IMG/VR virus record: IMGVR_UViG_2711768058_000006
DNA: 6,041 nucleotides
Strand: one strand, 5' to 3'
Source of the DNA: a virus
Lineage: Duplodnaviria; Heunggongvirae; Uroviricota; Caudoviricetes
Position numbers and translations under genes: made by a program. Positions 1-6,041 of this stretch are shown here, piece after piece (the first letter of the stretch is position 1; each line of letters begins with the position of its first letter). Below the pieces are notes generated by a model. That model saw only the letters and a list, made by a program, of their open reading frames with translations. It searched no databases and had not been told where the DNA came from.

Positions 1-1286
1 ATCTCTGTGAACTTACACAGCCTAACCAATACTTAATCTGTGATTCTTACGGTAACTACTATTTACGGATCACGCTGCCTGTGTATATGCAGCCCTTTTT
101 TGAAGGAAAAAGGACGTTTGTCAGGAGTCTGCACACAAGTAATCTTCGTGTTGCACGTAGAAAGCGTGATCAGATTGCAGATGAATACCATTGCTTACGG
201 GAGAGTGTTGCCCCTGTAAACAGCACAATAGAGAACACGCTGGAGCTATTACGCAGTAAGGCTAAATACGCCAAAACAGCTACCAGAATGCAAGATACAG
301 CGTCTTCGTGTCCGTCATTGCTTAAAATTCTTGAAATCTACCTGACAATTAACAGCACGAAGAAGAAGCCAGCCACTTTAGCTAAGGCAAGAAAAGCGGT
401 AGAGATGTTTCTCTCCTACCGTAAAAAGCCTGATATTGCATTGCAAGATGTGAGCCGCACCACTGTTACAGGCTGGATTGAACACATGCAAAAAACCCTT
501 TCACAACAATCAATTGCAAATTATATCAGCCCAATGGCCCAGCTATGGGAGTTAGCTTCATCACGTTACCACGATGCGCCAGAAAGGGCGCTCTCCCCCT
601 GGCGAGGGCATAGGCTTGATGTGGCACAAAGTAGAGAGAGCTACGAGGCATTTTCTAACAAAGAGCTATTGCAGGTGTTGCAAGTATTTTCCGGTAATTC
701 AGCAGAAAACAAAGAAATGATGGCTTTGTGTCTTATCGGTTTATATACAGGTATGCGGATCAATGAGATAGCAAGTCTCACAATAGACGATGTGAAAGAG
801 ATCGAAGGTGTGCTGTGTTTTGAAATCACACAGGGAAAAACGAAAGCTGCGGCACGTGTTGTGCCTGTGCATAGCCTTATCACTCCGTTGGTGTTATCTC
901 TTCGTGAAAAGCCTCACAATGGCTTTTTGTTCTATCACGCCAGCATCACAGAACGTGCTGATGGTAAACGTTCCACGTGGCACACGCAGAGATTTACAAG
1001 AGCTAAACGAAAGGCTTTAGGGGAAAAGGGAACAGAAAGGAAGGTGTTTCATTCTCTGAGACACGGAGTAGCACAGCTTCTTGATCGAAATCAAATTCCA
1101 GAAGACAGGATCGCCCTTCTCCTGGGCCATACACGCGGCAATACAGAGACATTCCGCACATATAGCAAGAATGCAGCTTCTCCAGTAGAGCTTAAAAACT
1201 ATATTGAGCTTCTACGCTACCCTGAAATAGAGAAAGGCTTATCAATCAATAAAAAATCAAATTTAAGGCGTAAAACAACGCCATAG
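1..1286 (+). CDS. int: Tyrosine-type site-specific integrase (lambda Int-like), 5' partial; frame is open from nt 3 to the window edge
   Basis: The frame of the 81..1286 ORF has no stop back to nt 3 and no ATG or SD before 87, so the gene most likely starts left of the window. The upstream in-frame translation ...NQYLICDSYGNYYLRITLPVYMQPFFEGKRTFVRSLHT resembles the lambda Int arm-binding N-terminus (NGYYCYRDPRTGKEFGLG, from memory). The C-terminal catalytic signatures are present: LYTGMRINE (box I Arg), HSLRHGVAQLL (H-x-x-R) and LLGHTRGNTETFRTY (His plus Tyr nucleophile). Stop is TAG at 1284-1286. Confidence 0.9.
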   Translation, partial: LCELTQPNQYLICDSYGNYYLRITLPVYMQPFFEGKRTFVRSLHTSNLRVARRKRDQIADEYHCLRESVAPVNSTIENTLELLRSKAKYAKTATRMQDTASSCPSLLKILEIYLTINSTKKKPATLAKARKAVEMFLSYRKKPDIALQDVSRTTVTGWIEHMQKTLSQQSIANYISPMAQLWELASSRYHDAPERALSPWRGHRLDVAQSRESYEAFSNKELLQVLQVFSGNSAENKEMMALCLIGLYTGMRINEIASLTIDDVKEIEGVLCFEITQGKTKAAARVVPVHSLITPLVLSLREKPHNGFLFYHASITERADGKRSTWHTQRFTRAKRKALGEKGTERKVFHSLRHGVAQLLDRNQIPEDRIALLLGHTRGNTETFRTYSKNAASPVELKNYIELLRYPEIEKGLSINKKSNLRRKTTP

Positions 1287-1367: not shown

Positions 1368-2081
1368 CTATTCCTGCTTAAAGGCAGGCGTAATAGTATC
1401 TTCACCTTCACTACTTGATTTTTCAGTGTTAACACGTTTTTTCATATTCGCCCCGATGTTCTTAGATGGCTGTGTTTTGATAGCTACAGTGTTTACTGTG
1501 CCATAAGACACTAATCTGATCTGTTCAAATTCCAAATCAAATACCAGAGATTCGCTTGCCTCTTCTGTGTATTCGATGCCTGTTAAAACAACGTTCTCAA
1601 AAGTTTTATTTTCTGTAACAAGAAGAAAAGGCTGTCTACTGTCCATAATCTGATTCAGGTAATCTATAGCCAATGATCTTCTGTTCCCGTTCACCCCTGC
1701 ACTCTTTAACAAGCCAGGATCGCTTTTAATCGGTGTTTCAGTGATACGCCCTTTAAGAGAAAACTTATTATTCTTCACTTGAACGTGATCAGACACAGTA
1801 GCACCATTTTCTACGGGGTAGCTTGTGACATCTGCCGAACGTCTCACGTTCACATCGTCTACACTATCAAAGGCCAGTGCCATATAATTTTCATAAACGT
1901 CATTACCAGAAGATGCCAAGCCACTGGTAACAATAGCAAATCCATTCTCTCCTTTTGTTTTATTAGCTTTGCTATTTTCGTTTTTTGTAGAATTTATATC
2001 TTGTTCTGCTTTGTAAACAGCCTGAACGTGTTGTTCTGGGGAGTTTGCTGCACGTATGGTTAAAATCCCGGCGGTCGCCAT
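1368..2081 (-). CDS. Hypothetical protein, 237 aa; possible virion or tail-tip component (weak call)
   Basis: Intact ORF with ATG at 2079-2081 preceded by AAGGAAA, and last gene of the leftward operon. Lys/Asn/Ser-rich N-terminus and acidic C-terminal tail. The segment QPFLLVTENKTFENVVLTGIEYTEEASESLVFDLEFEQIRLV loosely resembles the C-terminus of lambda minor tail protein M (...VEFSAEFEQVVN, from memory). This is motif-level only. Confidence 0.6.
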   Translation of the reverse strand: MATAGILTIRAANSPEQHVQAVYKAEQDINSTKNENSKANKTKGENGFAIVTSGLASSGNDVYENYMALAFDSVDDVNVRRSADVTSYPVENGATVSDHVQVKNNKFSLKGRITETPIKSDPGLLKSAGVNGNRRSLAIDYLNQIMDSRQPFLLVTENKTFENVVLTGIEYTEEASESLVFDLEFEQIRLVSYGTVNTVAIKTQPSKNIGANMKKRVNTEKSSSEGEDTITPAFKQE

Positions 2082-2103: not shown

Positions 2104-3948
2104 TTATGGGGGGAATTCCCCGCCGTTGGATTGTCCTGATAAGCTGGTTAATGTTAATGATTTCAAGAAGCTATCCCGACTTGCTCTCGCTGTAAAATCC
2201 ACATAATCGCTTAATCTTGATGTGTCAGAATTAATAGTAAGCGGAACCTCTGTTACCACTTCAAATGTAGGATTCAGATTAAACACAGGAGATAAATTAT
2301 AAGCCGGAGTTGTCATTGCAAGATTATTTAAAGCACCCTGTTTGAGATTGGTTATCGGTGCTTCGCTGACTGACATTTTTACATCTGACACAGAAGATTT
2401 ATCATCGAAAAGCAATCCCTTAATCGTGTTAAAGAGAGAATGACTATTATCAGGTGTAGTTGTTGCAGTGCCAGCGCCTTTATATTGATCAGGAACGAGA
2501 TCAGAAAGATTTTGTTTCATTCCATCATTACTCAAAGGCGGTGCATCCCCCATATTTTTCTGAATAGCTTCCGTCTTATCATCATTACGATTAAACCAGT
2601 TTACAATCTTCATAATAGCTTCAAAGAGACTTCCTGTAGCTTCTCCTAGCTTCGTAAAATACGGAGTGAGATTAGAAAGGTTTTTCATAAACTCTTCCGT
2701 TACTTTTGGATCAAGAGATTTCATAAAGCCGTCTACGAATGCTACTTGCCTTGCATCAGAAAGCTGTGAAAGCTGTCTGTTTAGTTCTCTGAATTTAACA
2801 ATAGAGTCTTGCTGTGTTTCTGTTAGCCATTGTCCGGCGGCTTTTTGCTGATTAATACTTTCTTGTACATCTTTAACGGAACGTTGCCAATATTTTGACG
2901 TAAGCATCAAATCATCGCCCAGGTCTTCTAAACGTTGTCCAATTTGGGAGTCTGAAAAACCTTTTTTCATCATTCCATTAACAGCCTTAGAAATTAATCC
3001 GGCTGGATTATCAGCAAATTTTTTAAGGTCGCTTTTGTTAATAACACCGATGTTTAGAAGTTCATTAATAGCGTTATCACCGCCTTTCCATTCGCCGCCT
3101 TTACCAGTTTTTTTATCGACTACATATTCAGCTTCACTATAGGATTTTGCGGCACGTTCCCTAACATCTTTCATCTGATCCAGGTATTTCCTAGCCCCTT
3201 GATCACCCATCATAGAGTCAACGCCGTTTCTATACGCCCATTCTGTAATATTATACATCTGGTTAACGTCTACACCGCCAAGCCTTGCACGTTGGATTAA
3301 TTCTCCTTGTGTTTCAGCATTAGCGAAGCTGTTAGCCATAAATTCAGAGGTTTTACTAACAGCCATCACGCCAGCAGCAGCCGTAGCGCCTCCAAATAAC
3401 AGAGCGCCCATAGTGGCGGAGTTCCCTGATCCTCCCTTAACGGGGGCTAATTGAGCTTTTCTGTTGCCATTAATCTTACGTTGTTGCTGTTGTAGGCGTT
3501 TCATCTGACTATTCATACGTGCAAGCGAGATAGCCCCTTGCTCATATTGTTTTGCTATCTCTCTAGCCTGTGCAATAGCTTTGTATTGTTCCGCTACAGA
3601 GAGGCGGTGCATTGCACTGATAGAGCTTGACACATCGAGGAGCTTTAATTCTGCTTTCTCCTTACGTGCTGCTATTTGTTGCTGTTGCCTTGCCTGTGCT
3701 CTTGCTGCGGCAGCTTGTGCTCTTTGATTCTGTTTTTCGTTTTTCGCTTTCTGTTGAGCAATCTTGTCTACCTCGTTTTGTGCTTTCTTATAGCCTTTAG
3801 TGACAGTATCGAATCTTAATTTAGCTGGCTTGATATTTTCTGCGAATTCCTTTAAGCCTGTAATAGAGTCTTTCGCTTTTTTCAAGCTGTCTTTATCTAC
3901 ACTAAATGTAACTGTGTTCTTAATTTTAGAAGTGTTAATTTCTAACAT
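2104..3948 (-). CDS. Large coiled-coil protein, 614 aa; tail tape-measure-like or internal virion protein-like (hypothesis)
   Basis: ATG at 3946-3948 with SD AAGGGGA 6 nt upstream. The N-terminal third is Q/A/R/K-rich low-complexity coiled coil (QKAKNEKQNQRAQAAAARAQARQQQQIAARKEKAELK, about 3650-3720). This is followed by a Gly/Ala-rich hydrophobic stretch GGSGNSATMGALLFGGATAAAGVMAVS (about 3355-3435) and a long, apparently helical C-terminal region. That combination is typical of phage tape-measure or minor tail proteins, but no family is confirmed. Confidence 0.7.
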   Translation of the reverse strand: MLEINTSKIKNTVTFSVDKDSLKKAKDSITGLKEFAENIKPAKLRFDTVTKGYKKAQNEVDKIAQQKAKNEKQNQRAQAAAARAQARQQQQIAARKEKAELKLLDVSSSISAMHRLSVAEQYKAIAQAREIAKQYEQGAISLARMNSQMKRLQQQQRKINGNRKAQLAPVKGGSGNSATMGALLFGGATAAAGVMAVSKTSEFMANSFANAETQGELIQRARLGGVDVNQMYNITEWAYRNGVDSMMGDQGARKYLDQMKDVRERAAKSYSEAEYVVDKKTGKGGEWKGGDNAINELLNIGVINKSDLKKFADNPAGLISKAVNGMMKKGFSDSQIGQRLEDLGDDLMLTSKYWQRSVKDVQESINQQKAAGQWLTETQQDSIVKFRELNRQLSQLSDARQVAFVDGFMKSLDPKVTEEFMKNLSNLTPYFTKLGEATGSLFEAIMKIVNWFNRNDDKTEAIQKNMGDAPPLSNDGMKQNLSDLVPDQYKGAGTATTTPDNSHSLFNTIKGLLFDDKSSVSDVKMSVSEAPITNLKQGALNNLAMTTPAYNLSPVFNLNPTFEVVTEVPLTINSDTSRLSDYVDFTARASRDSFLKSLTLTSLSGQSNGGEFPP

Positions 3949-3962
3949 TTAAAATCCCCTTA

Positions 3963-4166
3963 TTAATCATTTTTATCACCTTCTTTGCTTAAGAAATGGT
4001 GTAGAGCCTGATCAATGCTCTCGTTTAATCTGAACATACGGGCTTTTACGCCTTCATAGGGAACATCTAAAAGAGAACATAGATATTTCAGATTTAACAA
4101 GCCTCTAGAATCATTAGCATCTAAATGTACGTGTACACCATTTTTTGATTTCAGAATCACTTCCAT
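3963..4166 (-). CDS. Small hypothetical protein, 67 aa
   Basis: ATG at 4164-4166 with a strong SD (AGAGGTGA, about 8 nt spacing). Its stop lies 14 bp before the 614-aa start, and it sits immediately downstream of the 4209-4235 hairpin. No recognisable motif. Confidence 0.55.
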   Translation of the reverse strand: MEVILKSKNGVHVHLDANDSRGLLNLKYLCSLLDVPYEGVKARMFRLNESIDQALHHFLSKEGDKND

Positions 4167-4190: not shown

Positions 4191-4235
4191 AAAAAATAAA
4201 TAAAAAAAGGCGAAGCGTGAATACACGCCACGCCT
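4191..4235 (-). terminator. Rho-independent terminator or attenuator on the minus strand, immediately after the 342-aa gene
   Basis: GC-rich hairpin: + strand GGCGAAGCGTG (4209-4219), loop AATA, CACGCCACGCC (4224-4234), giving 9 of 11 pairs. On the minus strand it is followed by a long U-tract (+ strand A-run 4191-4208, AAAAAAATAAATAAAAAAA). Its position inside the operon suggests partial termination, which would give higher expression of the upstream 120-aa and 342-aa genes. Confidence 0.6.
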
Positions 4236-4253
4236 CTATTACACGTTAAAATA

Positions 4254-5282
4254 TTATTTAACAGTGATTTGAACGGAGAAGCCTACACCGTGGTTTACCA
4301 CCATCTGGCTATTCTCGGTCACTACGTGCACTGCGTCGCCGCGAGAACCCTCATAACTATAGCTATACACCTCAGCAGGAGCGGCATTAATCAGTTCAAA
4401 GGTGCTGGAAGCTGCCCCGTAGATGCTCTGGTAGACGTTAGAGAATTTAGAGAACTTCGGAATCGCAACCGCATCAGAAGTCATATGTGCAAGGTGTAGC
4501 GGATCTACCAGTTTAACAACATCAATGTTAGTTCCTGGAATAGTGAACGCTGTCACTCCTGGTAGCAGGTCACGACGCTGATACACAACATTCCCTTCTT
4601 CCAGTGGGCTTACATACTGGAATGCGTTTGCCATACCAGCAGAGAATCGAATTGCAGAGAAGGCTTCCGGCTTACAGAAAACAACAATACGCTCTACAGC
4701 CGCCGCCTGACTCTGTGCTTTTTCGATAATGTCAGTAGCAATCTGATCAAATTCTTTAAAAATCTTCGTGGTGTCAGTGCTGGAAGCGTTCACAGTGGCT
4801 TTCATAGCTGATACGTTAAACAGCTTGCCCCACTCAATTAACACATCATCAGTTTTAGGCGTGTAAGTTTTGCCAGAGAACAAAGAAGCCGCCAACACGC
4901 TCTCTTTAGTACGCTGGAATGCAACATTGTGTTTAGCGATATATTCCGCATAGATATCAGTGAGTGTTTCCTGAAAATCAGTGCCAGGCTTACGCTTGCC
5001 TTGAACATCAGAAGGTCTAATCACATCCTCACGAAGAAAATACGGGATTTCGATCAGCCATTCTTTACCTTGTTCTCGCTTAGTAACGTTGTGTTCAGAA
5101 GAGAAACGAGAGGTTTCTTTGTTGAACAGAGATTCGTTGCTTTCGACAAGCTGGGAAACAGCTACTTTATGAGAACTAACGCCCACCGGATCAGTGAAGT
5201 CGAGAGTAGAAAGTAGATAATTTCTAGTGCTATGCGCAGAGAACAAAGGAGCTAAATCAACGTAATCATTACCTAGAATCAT
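4254..5282 (-). CDS. Putative major capsid protein, HK97-fold-like, 342 aa (hypothesis)
   Basis: ATG at 5280-5282 with SD AAAGGAA. The internal segment AVERIVVFCKPEAFSAIRFSAGMANAFQYVSPLEEGN parallels a segment I recall from T7 gp10 (DRVFYCDPDSYSAILAALMPNAANYAALIDPEKGS) and, more loosely, lambda gpE (IIVFDPKGWALFRSF). Length is close to lambda E (341 aa). The gene is followed by a strong terminator, consistent with a highly expressed structural protein. Not verified by any search. Confidence 0.7.
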   Translation of the reverse strand: MILGNDYVDLAPLFSAHSTRNYLLSTLDFTDPVGVSSHKVAVSQLVESNESLFNKETSRFSSEHNVTKREQGKEWLIEIPYFLREDVIRPSDVQGKRKPGTDFQETLTDIYAEYIAKHNVAFQRTKESVLAASLFSGKTYTPKTDDVLIEWGKLFNVSAMKATVNASSTDTTKIFKEFDQIATDIIEKAQSQAAAVERIVVFCKPEAFSAIRFSAGMANAFQYVSPLEEGNVVYQRRDLLPGVTAFTIPGTNIDVVKLVDPLHLAHMTSDAVAIPKFSKFSNVYQSIYGAASSTFELINAAPAEVYSYSYEGSRGDAVHVVTENSQMVVNHGVGFSVQITVK

Positions 5283-5300: not shown

Positions 5301-5663
5301 TTAAGAAGTGAAAACAGAGTGGAACCCTTCAAGCTGGAAGCCTTTTTTAATTAATGCTGTTTTTGCTGCTTCACTTACAGCATTCAGCGCATCAGCTTTG
5401 ATGCAGACAAGGCCAGCATTAGCACGAAGCACATCTACAGGCTTGTTTTCTCCAGCCGTTACAAATTCACTCATAACAACATAGATATCATCTCCTGATT
5501 CATATTTAGCGCCCGTGCTGGTGATCAAGTCTCCGCACTCAACATCAGCAGGAAGAGAAGCAAAAACCTTGCTTTCTACAGAGGCAAACGGATCAGTACA
5601 ATAACTTACAATATCTGTGAAAGTCTTTCGAACTGGAAATAGAGCGTCTAAATCAATAATCAT
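5301..5663 (-). CDS. Hypothetical protein, 120 aa; possible capsid accessory (decoration or scaffold-like) protein, based on position only
   Basis: ATG at 5661-5663 with a canonical SD (AAGGAGA, 8 nt spacing). It sits directly upstream of the capsid-like gene, analogous to a small head-accessory gene preceding a capsid gene. No sequence motif recognised. Confidence 0.65.
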   Translation of the reverse strand: MIIDLDALFPVRKTFTDIVSYCTDPFASVESKVFASLPADVECGDLITSTGAKYESGDDIYVVMSEFVTAGENKPVDVLRANAGLVCIKADALNAVSEAAKTALIKKGFQLEGFHSVFTS

Positions 5664-5872
5664 TTAGTAATCTCCTTAGCTTTTAATTTGATTAATTCAT
5701 TAAGGGAAGGTGTAGACGGAGAAGAAGGAGAAAAATATTTTTCAACACATCTTTCTACTTCCTCGACAGAACACCCAGCGTATTTAGCTACCATTTCGGT
5801 AATTTGTGGAGTAATTCGCAGCATTTCATTTTTATATTTTATGATTTGCTCTTTATCGTTTAAAAACAACAT
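5660..5872 (-). CDS. Small hypothetical protein, 70 aa; possible helix-turn-helix DNA-binding protein
   Basis: First gene of the leftward operon. ATG at 5870-5872 with a weak SD (AAGGT). Its TGA stop overlaps the ATG of the 120-aa gene (ATGA at 5660-5663), suggesting translational coupling. The segment ITEMVAKYAGCSVEEVERCVEKY has an HTH-like helix-turn-helix pattern. Confidence 0.55.
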   Translation of the reverse strand: MLFLNDKEQIIKYKNEMLRITPQITEMVAKYAGCSVEEVERCVEKYFSPSSPSTPSLNELIKLKAKEITK

Positions 5873-6028
5873 TTATATAAACCTTGTTACCTTGTTTAAA
5901 GTAAGAAATACAACTTTTAAGTTGCATAACGGGCAAAATAAAAGGCAGCATTTAAAGCCGCCTTTGTAATTACCCTATGTTATGCACACTCCAAGATGTA
6001 TGCATAACAAAGGAAAGAGGTATAGGTA
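5873..6028. promoter_or_regulatory. Divergent promoter/operator region with repeated operator-like half-sites
   Basis: Perfect inverted repeat TGTTATGCA (5978-5986) / TGCATAACA (6001-6009) with a 14-bp spacer. A third copy of the half-site, TGCATAAC, lies at 5923-5930. There is a dyad CAACTT-TT-AAGTTG at 5911-5924 and a tandem repeat CCTTGTTA/CCTTGTTT at 5882-5897 next to the 70-aa start. Exact -35/-10 elements could not be assigned with confidence. Confidence 0.45.
5931..5966 (-). terminator. Terminator-like hairpin on the minus strand inside the right intergenic region
   Basis: Minus-strand sequence AAAGGCGGC-tttaaat-GCTGCCTTT (9-bp stem with one G-U pair, + strand 5941-5966) followed by TTTTATTTTG (+ strand 5931-5940). 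Confidence 0.35.
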
Positions 6029-6041
6029 ATGACTCCAACTT
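6029..6041 (+). CDS. Possible 5' end of a rightward gene, truncated by the window edge; product unknown
   Basis: ATG at 6029-6031 preceded by AAAGGAAAGAGG (AGAGG 8 nt upstream). Only 4 codons are visible. The alternative is that a minus-strand gene from beyond the window ends at the TAA at 5969-5971 (that frame is open from 5972 to 6041). Confidence 0.25.

Follow-up and report, generated by a model that had tools for sequence, protein, structure and literature searches.

Why should a gene for a phage capsid protein stand in a bacterial virus record with no portal or terminase gene beside it? This question is raised by a 342-aa ORF in the 6,041-bp stretch of DNA analysed here (the window). A preliminary description of the window had singled out this ORF as encoding a capsid-like protein, had remarked on its unusual isolation, and had noted a strong terminator directly downstream. 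The features of the window discussed below are the following.

1..1286, plus strand: tyrosine integrase, adjoining attR (PF00589, PF13102 and PGAP annotation, which places the start 7 nt ahead of the window)
1368..2081, minus strand: predicted tail tube initiator or Dit-like baseplate protein, 237 aa, homologue of phi92 gp135
2104..3948, minus strand: tape measure protein homologue, 614 aa, similar to phi92 gp134
3963..4166, minus strand: p67, 67 aa, just upstream of the tape measure gene and, by synteny, at the position of phi92 gp133
4205..4236, minus strand: intrinsic terminator between the capsid gene and the tail-internal genes, with a 13-bp stem, UAUU loop and U7
4254..5282, minus strand: predicted major capsid protein (MCP) of the lambda-gpE/PF03864 family with HK97 fold, 342 aa, ATG start, TAA stop
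5301..5663, minus strand: p120, probable capsid decoration protein, 120 aa, directly upstream of the MCP gene
5660..5872, minus strand: p70, 70 aa, opening the p70-p120-MCP operon; its stop codon overlaps the p120 start (ATGA)
5941..5965, minus strand: terminator-like hairpin with 9 pairs (5 G-C) and a T-rich tail, which would end the operon that precedes the capsid operon

The capsid gene, its operon and its terminator

According to the ORF listing, the sole long ORF at 4254..5282 runs on the minus strand from an ATG and encodes 342 aa. Its strand had been left unstated previously; the MCP gene and the terminator both lie on the minus strand. The peptides quoted in support of a capsid function were located in the protein at residues 198-211 (RIVVFCKPEAFSAI), 217-223 (MANAFQY) and 226-230 (PLEEG), and when 20 homologues are aligned, the residues of this segment that never vary include R198, F202, R212, A220 and Y223.

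The capsid-like character of the protein is borne out by profile searches. PF03864 (Phage_cap_E) matches residues 19-341 on profile positions 14-329 of 329 (E = 1.2e-14), with 54.6 bits against a curated cut-off of 22.9 bits; the same domain is present in every MCP homologue, and the protein also matches PHROG 29, “major head protein.” The loose resemblance to lambda gpE suggested earlier is well placed, in that the MCP falls in the Pfam family named after that protein, while lambda gpE itself was not found by the MCP family profile among all PDB sequences at E<=10. In searches of all PDB sequences with the single MCP sequence, the Pakpunavirus capsid protein 9zbi (E = 9e-11) and, over the full length, phi92 gp124 (phmmer, E = 1e-6) were recovered. 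The MCP family profile matches phi92 gp124 with E = 1.6e-18 (residues 2-342 on 3-332), as well as the capsid proteins of PhiTE, Bas63 and Sf14. By these comparisons the nearest relatives of the MCP are the capsid proteins of phi92 (gp124), Pakpunavirus, PhiTE and Sf14/Bas63, and the closest solved one is phi92 gp124, with an identity of only about 22%. The MCP shares full-length homology and the same fold with the gpE-family capsids (phi92 gp124, 9zbi, PhiTE 9cul, Sf14 9c2d, Bas63 9ncf and lambda gpE). The other proposed kinship, with T7 gp10, found no counterpart in the searches: no T7 match was obtained among all PDB chains, including 3j7w, with phmmer at E<=1 or with the family profile at E<=10, and the T7 capsid appears only as a weak generic fold match to the MCP model (Foldseek E = 1e-2, TM 0.27).

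The AlphaFold2 (AF2) model of the MCP is poor (pLDDT 53.5) because the family is narrow and the alignment shallow; a profile search of a 5.8-billion-protein set added no distant members. The A-domain, the P-domain and the long spine helix of the HK97 fold are present in the model, so that this part of the structural expectation holds, while the region of the N-arm and E-loop (residues 1-90) has pLDDT <50 and these two elements are implied only by the end-to-end alignment with the solved phi92 gp124.

The dN/dS of the MCP gene is 0.108 against the allele of strain ST866 (dS 0.26); with an allele of 73% identity it comes to about 0.12. Values of 0-0.2, indicative of purifying selection, were obtained for all window genes where computable. 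A chance ORF is ruled out by the full-length PF03864 match together with the dN/dS of 0.108. As judged from homology, the ORF is a genuine phage capsid-shell gene, coding for an HK97-fold MCP of the lambda-gpE family.

No match to the window was found by megablast in 50,697 phage genomes. With tblastn of the MCP against phages, only capsid proteins of Pseudomonas, Limnohabitans and Curvibacter phages appear among the matches listed, at about 20-25% identity. MCP homologues are confined, in the searches made, to Enterobacterales chromosomes, where they occur in compact islands, and none is found in a sequenced phage; in this restriction, as in its low identity, the MCP lineage differs from phi92 gp124. 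Truncated MCP fragments are also present in the databases.

The terminator reported after the capsid gene is real. It begins 17 nt past the TAA stop and consists of a G+C-rich stem (4236-4212) with one internal mismatch, followed directly by a U7 tract (4211-4205), as expected of a Rho-independent terminator. The RNA fold has an energy of -27.1 kcal/mol (z = -5.3), and none of 200 shuffled sequences was as stable. The next gene starts at 4166. A hairpin with a U-tract occupies the same post-MCP position in related elements of Klebsiella, Serratia, Buttiauxella, Enterobacter, Kluyvera, Scandinavium and Citrobacter, and phi92 gp124 likewise has one directly 3' of it. The terminator is therefore a conserved feature of the MCP gene arrangement; the terminators of the other genera differ in sequence. 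The earlier suggestion that the capsid gene is expressed at higher stoichiometry than the genes beyond the terminator is reasonable, since phi92 has the same arrangement, and the terminator would fit a high output of MCP and a low output of tail-internal proteins.

Of the two genes preceding the MCP gene in the operon, p70 is conserved in the Buttiauxella, Enterobacter, Kluyvera, Scandinavium and Citrobacter elements. The second, p120, sits at the position of the phi92 decoration gene gp123, so that in both systems a decoration gene (for p120, a probable one) directly precedes the MCP gene and a terminator directly follows it. No sequence similarity between p120 and gp123 was detected by BLASTP, and homologues of p120 were found only in this element family. 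Although the AF2 model of p120 is of low confidence (pLDDT 56.4), its only credible Foldseek matches are chains of 122-124 aa in the capsid entries of Sf14 and Bas63 (probability 0.98-1.0, E from 6e-3 to 1.5e-2). These chains are unnamed in the search output, and we take them to be decoration proteins. A gene at the position of p120 is labeled “Dec” in Figure 8 of PMC10448857. On the strength of the model, p120 is probably a capsid decoration protein. The T4-type late promoter motif TATAAATA was not found in the window, and a sigma-70 promoter scan of the window performed no better than on shuffled sequences.

The integrative element at thrW and its relatives

The MCP gene lies in a 12,374-bp element of Escherichia coli integrated at the tRNA-Thr gene thrW and flanked by att repeats. 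In strain ST866, where the element is uninterrupted, the 28-nt direct repeat, corresponding to the 3' end of thrW, is located at positions 19829-19856 and 32203-32230 of the locus sequence L002, with the integrase gene adjoining. The element is inserted at the locus of the cryptic prophage CP4-6, beside yagP/paoD, and a LysR pseudogene adjoins. The window is essentially identical to the chromosome of E. coli strain JMF1, and sequence from the island is present in 606 of 5,426 complete E. coli genomes (~11%).

Only the integrase, the tape measure protein and the MCP exceed 250 aa in the 12.4-kb element. The next-largest ORFs encode the 237-aa tube initiator and a 229-aa Rep-like protein, and the largest ORF product lacking a family match has 136 aa. 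Genes for portal, terminase, protease, scaffold, sheath and tube are absent from the ORFs of the element, and no packaging-site gene was recognised in it. The lack of an adjacent portal or terminase gene thus holds well beyond the window, for the whole element, in which no space is left for either of these genes or for one encoding a protease, sheath or tube.

The 229-aa protein carries an HTH_36 domain and matches phage replication-initiator PHROGs. Next to this Rep-type initiator is a non-coding stretch of about 3 kb, rich in iteron-like tandem repeats, for which Rfam returned no match. None of p70, p67, p112, p136, p92, p55, p58 and p52 could be assigned to a family by searches of Pfam, PHROG, NCBIfam and PADLOC, and no defense family was matched by PADLOC in the element.

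Not all copies of the element are intact. In JMF1 the Rep gene is split by an insertion sequence (IS), and some copies are riddled with IS elements. The last 17 nt of the window differ from all other genomes and look like the terminus of an IS lying 152 nt ahead of the capsid operon; we take it to be the end of IS1. The copy represented by the window may be inactive or impaired.

The compact layout recurs in Klebsiella, Serratia, Buttiauxella, Kluyvera, Scandinavium, Citrobacter and Enterobacter, with the gene order p58-p55-(Rep)-p92-p136-p112-p70-p120-MCP-p67-TMP-(tube initiator)-integrase, where TMP is the tape measure protein. Gene set and order are kept at 37-64% protein identity in at least eight genera and at different integration sites. 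Distant MCP relatives retrieved by exhaustive HMM search also lie in islands of about 12 kb that encode an integrase and a tape measure of about 600 aa; some of these distant islands carry a PhiTE-type adaptor gene, and some relatives lack the tube initiator. Two metagenome contigs of independent origin measure 11,966 and 11,964 bp, and both terminate in a 21-bp att repeat. The assemblies L017 and L018 were considered as circular molecules, a reading rejected on finding that their ends are att repeats. From this conservation, as far as sequence comparison goes, the element is a conserved unit and not debris.

Homology and probable conflict with phi92-like phages

The tail-internal genes of the element have clear counterparts in phi92. 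The tape measure protein matches PHROG 16051 (E = 4e-53), the PDB chain 21vq_V (E = 6e-38) and the tape measures of Justusliebigvirus and Phapecoctavirus. Against phi92 gp134 (BLASTP E = 4e-34), 22 of its first 23 residues are identical, and the remainder shows 26% identity; at the DNA level the first 87 nt of the gene are 85% identical to phi92, and identity then falls to 59% and 33%. The tube initiator contains PF21821 (E = 3.6e-29), is 61% identical to phi92 gp135 (E = 5e-93) and matches the PDB chain 21vq_N (E = 1e-78) as well as the tube initiators of PhiTE and Pam3; solved baseplate structures show phi92 gp135, like the corresponding proteins of PhiTE and Pam3, to be a tail tube initiator. 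No sequence similarity was detected between p67, which is conserved across the element family, and phi92 gp133. Overall, the order p120-MCP...p67-TMP-tube initiator mirrors gp123-gp124...gp133-gp134-gp135 of phi92, without gp125-132.

A second link to this phage group is provided by p55, the only one of nine concatenated small element proteins to be matched in a tblastn search of all phages. It is 100% identical to a gene product of the phi92-like phages muut and inny, and the match lies within 239-242 bp at 97-98% nucleotide identity between these phages and the element. The next gene in both phages (inny_184 and muut_154) encodes a protein with the architecture variable HTH_36 + HTH_36 + MUG113/T5orf172, of the GIY-YIG type, the C-terminal part of which resembles annotated homing endonucleases. 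Residues 1-140 of inny_184 are 88% identical to the N terminus of Rep from the E. coli element variants L008 and L013, and residues 3-114 of muut_154 are 69% identical to the Rep-like protein of the Citrobacter element L014. Between inny_184 and the Rep type found in the ST866/JMF1 variant, identity is only 32%; the mirroring of the Rep N-terminal domain by a phage nuclease is thus found for sister variants of the family. In phage ICP1, the nuclease Odn joins a RepA_N DNA-binding domain to T5orf172; its N-terminal domain copies the RepA_N of the satellite PLE, and Odn cuts the PLE origin (PMC8263062). By analogy, the architecture of inny_184 and muut_154 parallels that of Odn and may be regarded as an arms-race signature. 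Other phages of the group, among them phi92 itself, alia and outra, have no such Odn-like gene.

A satellite reading and its alternatives

[quoted passage not shown] These predicted satellites, of which 224 elements are given and whose typical length is put at about 13 kb, are about 12-14 kb in size and att-flanked at tRNA or lysR; they encode a tyrosine integrase, RepA (RepA_N-type), Dec, MCP, TMP and a baseplate component, and are without terminase, protease, adaptors, alpA and Pri-Rep. The thrW element has the size, att flanks and integrase of this family, and its gene set comprises Dec-MCP-TMP-baseplate and a RepA_N-type initiator, with no terminase, protease or adaptors. Three members listed in Table S6 of that paper (CP010117, AP021891 and LR778152) share 95.3-95.9% identity with the window across 99-100% of its length and are entered there at the coordinates of the matches obtained here, and the att sequence of the thrW element is identical to the att given there. 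On these grounds the element is assigned to the family of PMC10448857, which was already described, by bioinformatic means only. The orphan context of the MCP gene, with no portal or terminase, is explained by its location in a predicted phage satellite.

The satellite interpretation was reached here independently of that paper, and the element differs in kind in no respect from the published family. An overview of satellite families dated December 2025 makes no mention of a phi92-like satellite family, and in the literature searched no experimental report of excision, helper-dependent replication, packaging or transduction was found for it. While the satellite prediction is published, a mechanism is not. 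New here are the relatives in seven further genera, including variants with no tube initiator and variants with a PhiTE-type adaptor, the selection analysis, the conserved post-MCP terminator, the mosaicism seen at the 5' end of the gene for the tape measure and the identification of phi92 gp124 as the closest solved MCP.

We consider it probable that the MCP is functional and is the head gene of a thrW satellite of phi92-like (Stephanstirmvirinae) lytic myoviruses, with a mechanism as follows. Upon infection by a phi92-like phage the element would excise and replicate, and its capsid operon would supply shell and decoration proteins of the element's own in high copy number. The terminator would limit read-through into the low-copy tail-internal genes and so set the ratio of shell to tail-internal proteins. 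The shell of the element would assemble on the helper portal and be completed with helper terminase and tail parts; the resulting small capsids would fit the 12.4 kb of the element and could not accommodate the helper genome of 148 kb. Tails that are otherwise helper-made would incorporate the tape measure and tube initiator of the element. For their part, the phages would answer the element with chimeric nucleases bearing copies of its Rep DNA-binding domain. We infer the formation of small capsids on the helper portal, and the compatibility of the MCP with helper portal and scaffold is uncertain because the MCP is only 22% identical to phi92 gp124.

[quoted passage not shown] Like PLE, the thrW element would be small and integrative and would parasitise a large virulent myovirus, and its phages carry a nuclease of the same composition as Odn of ICP1. 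However, PLE remodels the helper coat protein into small capsids by means of an external scaffold, as stated in the title of entry 8g1r and reported by Boyd et al., whereas the thrW element carries its own MCP and a decoration-like gene; no homology to PLE proteins was found in the searches made. With cf-PICIs the element shares a capsid protein of its own with the HK97 fold and the absence of helper-coat remodelling. The cf-PICIs, in contrast, carry small terminase, portal, protease, adaptors, alpA and Pri-Rep and take only tails from the helper (PMC10448857), while none of these six functions is found among the ORFs of the 12.4-kb element, which has instead a tape measure and a tube initiator. 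The EPIP satellites of Mycolicibacterium are likewise small and are reported to encode an MCP and a tape measure, with altered capsid size and tail length (PMC12822802). By their description they are set apart from the thrW element by another host phylum, a serine integrase, the possession of small terminase and adaptors, and a temperate helper (PMC12822802).

A more specific and tentative proposal is that the thrW element acts as a “partial capsid-former,” building a small shell from its own highly diverged MCP and decoration protein, using helper portal and terminase, and placing its own TMP and tube initiator in helper tails. Such a strategy, as part of the same tentative proposal, would stand between those of P4/PICI/PLE and of cf-PICIs; on this proposal no satellite of a virulent coliphage would have been characterised earlier, and the system would provide a second, independent Odn-type arms race.

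An alternative that we regard as unlikely is that the island serves in defense only and is never packaged, the capsid, tape measure and tube initiator homologues being decoy or poison subunits that derail the assembly of phi92-like phages. The tape measure does keep helper-like termini (22 of 23 N-terminal residues), as a competitive subunit needs, interference of mobile elements with tail assembly is documented in PMC11364771, and the Odn-like nucleases show that the phages are harmed, for which interference alone could account. However, an MCP only 22% identical to that of the helper, accompanied by its own decoration-like protein, suits the making of a separate shell better than poisoning by co-assembly. 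The retention of integrase, att sites, Rep and iterons and the uniform size of about 12 kb across genera both suggest that packaging and mobility impose a constraint; PADLOC, moreover, matched no defense family. Roles in defense and as a satellite are not mutually exclusive, and the tape measure could act as a decoy, a function that is less likely in the case of the MCP.

It is very improbable that the element is a decaying prophage remnant, its capsid and tail genes being non-functional leftovers of deletion, even though it occupies the CP4-6 cryptic prophage locus beside yagP/paoD, IS-riddled copies exist and truncated MCP fragments occur in the databases. Every window gene for which dN/dS could be computed gives 0-0.2, the att repeats are intact, and the gene set and order are kept in at least eight genera at different sites despite protein identities of 37-64%; furthermore, the related phages are virulent myoviruses of about 150 kb, and no temperate form of the lineage is known. 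A stand-alone capsid gene related to T7 gp10 that makes particles on its own, whether encapsulin-like or GTA-like, is hardly credible, given that no T7 gp10 sequence match appears even at E<=10, that the protein belongs to the gpE family of tailed phages and its gene is associated with tail-internal genes and the backbone of a mobile element, and that Pfam shows no signature of a cargo or encapsulin family; readings as an encapsulin-like or GTA-like particle or as an autonomous mini-phage were all rejected in view of the missing portal and terminase and the clear mobile-element backbone.

The apparently orphan capsid gene is accordingly explained by a published family of predicted satellites. 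Its relevance follows from the presence of sequence from the island in about 11% of complete E. coli genomes and of relatives across Enterobacterales. If the island is an active satellite, it would show that a satellite can supply only shell and tail-internal proteins and borrow all else from its helper. As an active satellite, it would constitute a defense against phi92-like and Phapecoctavirus therapeutic phages and, in addition, a vehicle for gene transfer.

Capsid operon and tape measure gene

The stop codon of p70 overlaps the start codon of p120 in an ATGA motif (window 5660-5663), suggesting that these two genes are translationally coupled. A separate terminator-like hairpin (window 5941-5965) precedes p70 and marks off the capsid genes as a predicted transcription unit of their own; no convincing promoter was found for this p70-p120-MCP unit. 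The last 17 nt of the window (6025-6041, GGTAATGACTCCAACTT) differ from the copies of the element in strains JMF1 and ST866 and from all other complete E. coli genomes at this junction. This sequence appears to equal the terminal inverted repeat of IS1; an IS1 copy would then be inserted in the source strain, 152 nt ahead of the operon formed by p70, p120 and MCP.

The tape measure gene comprises a mosaic joint (window 3861-3948, minus strand). Over its first 87 nt, identity to gp134, the tape measure gene of the putative helper phi92, is 85%, falling thereafter to 59% and 33%. This pattern suggests either recombination with a helper component that binds the N terminus of the tape measure protein (TMP) or a strong constraint to fit such a component.

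Replication module and its disruption in JMF1

Outside the window, the uninterrupted ST866 copy (L002) carries a region of about 3 kb (L002 28471-31443) in which all ORFs are at most 127 aa long and no Rfam family was matched. It is filled with tandem iteron-like repeats:

L002 29717-29799, iteron-like repeat of 22-nt units
L002 29846-30069, further iteron-like repeats
L002 31091-31130, iteron-like repeat of 10-nt units

This region is probably a replication origin and may also serve as a packaging site.

The 55-aa gene p55 and its flank (together L002 28046-28284) are matched in the lytic phages muut and inny by a gene with 97-98% DNA identity, the protein being 100% identical. The phage counterparts of this region lie at L019 3397-3625 and L020 2998-3239.

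In both phages the next gene downstream of it encodes the Odn-like nuclease, and p55 occupies the same place upstream of Rep, the replication-initiator-like gene of the element.

In JMF1 (L001 27375-29266 and 18921-19961) the Rep gene is interrupted by the IS5-like ISKpn26, and the island is flanked or invaded by IS481 and IS903B copies. The replication module of this copy is broken, while its structural module is intact; its TMP is four codons shorter at the end than that of the window.

Gene cargo of related elements

The tube-initiator gene is present in the E. coli and Buttiauxella variants and absent from those of Klebsiella, Serratia, Kluyvera, Scandinavium and Citrobacter (L003-L006, L011, L012, L014). 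At the far end of the elements from Klebsiella and Serratia there is an additional, short integrase-like gene (183-205 aa). With 40-42% identity to Phapecoctavirus TMPs, the TMP of Klebsiella is closer to these than its E. coli counterpart is to that of phi92. Among the more distant relatives (L015/L016 8065-9638; L017/L018) there are genes whose precomputed Pfam matches are to virion proteins of PhiTE (the adaptor PF26075, and PF26210). In L017/L018 the capsid genes are located downstream of the tape measure gene. The structural cargo therefore differs among members of this element family.
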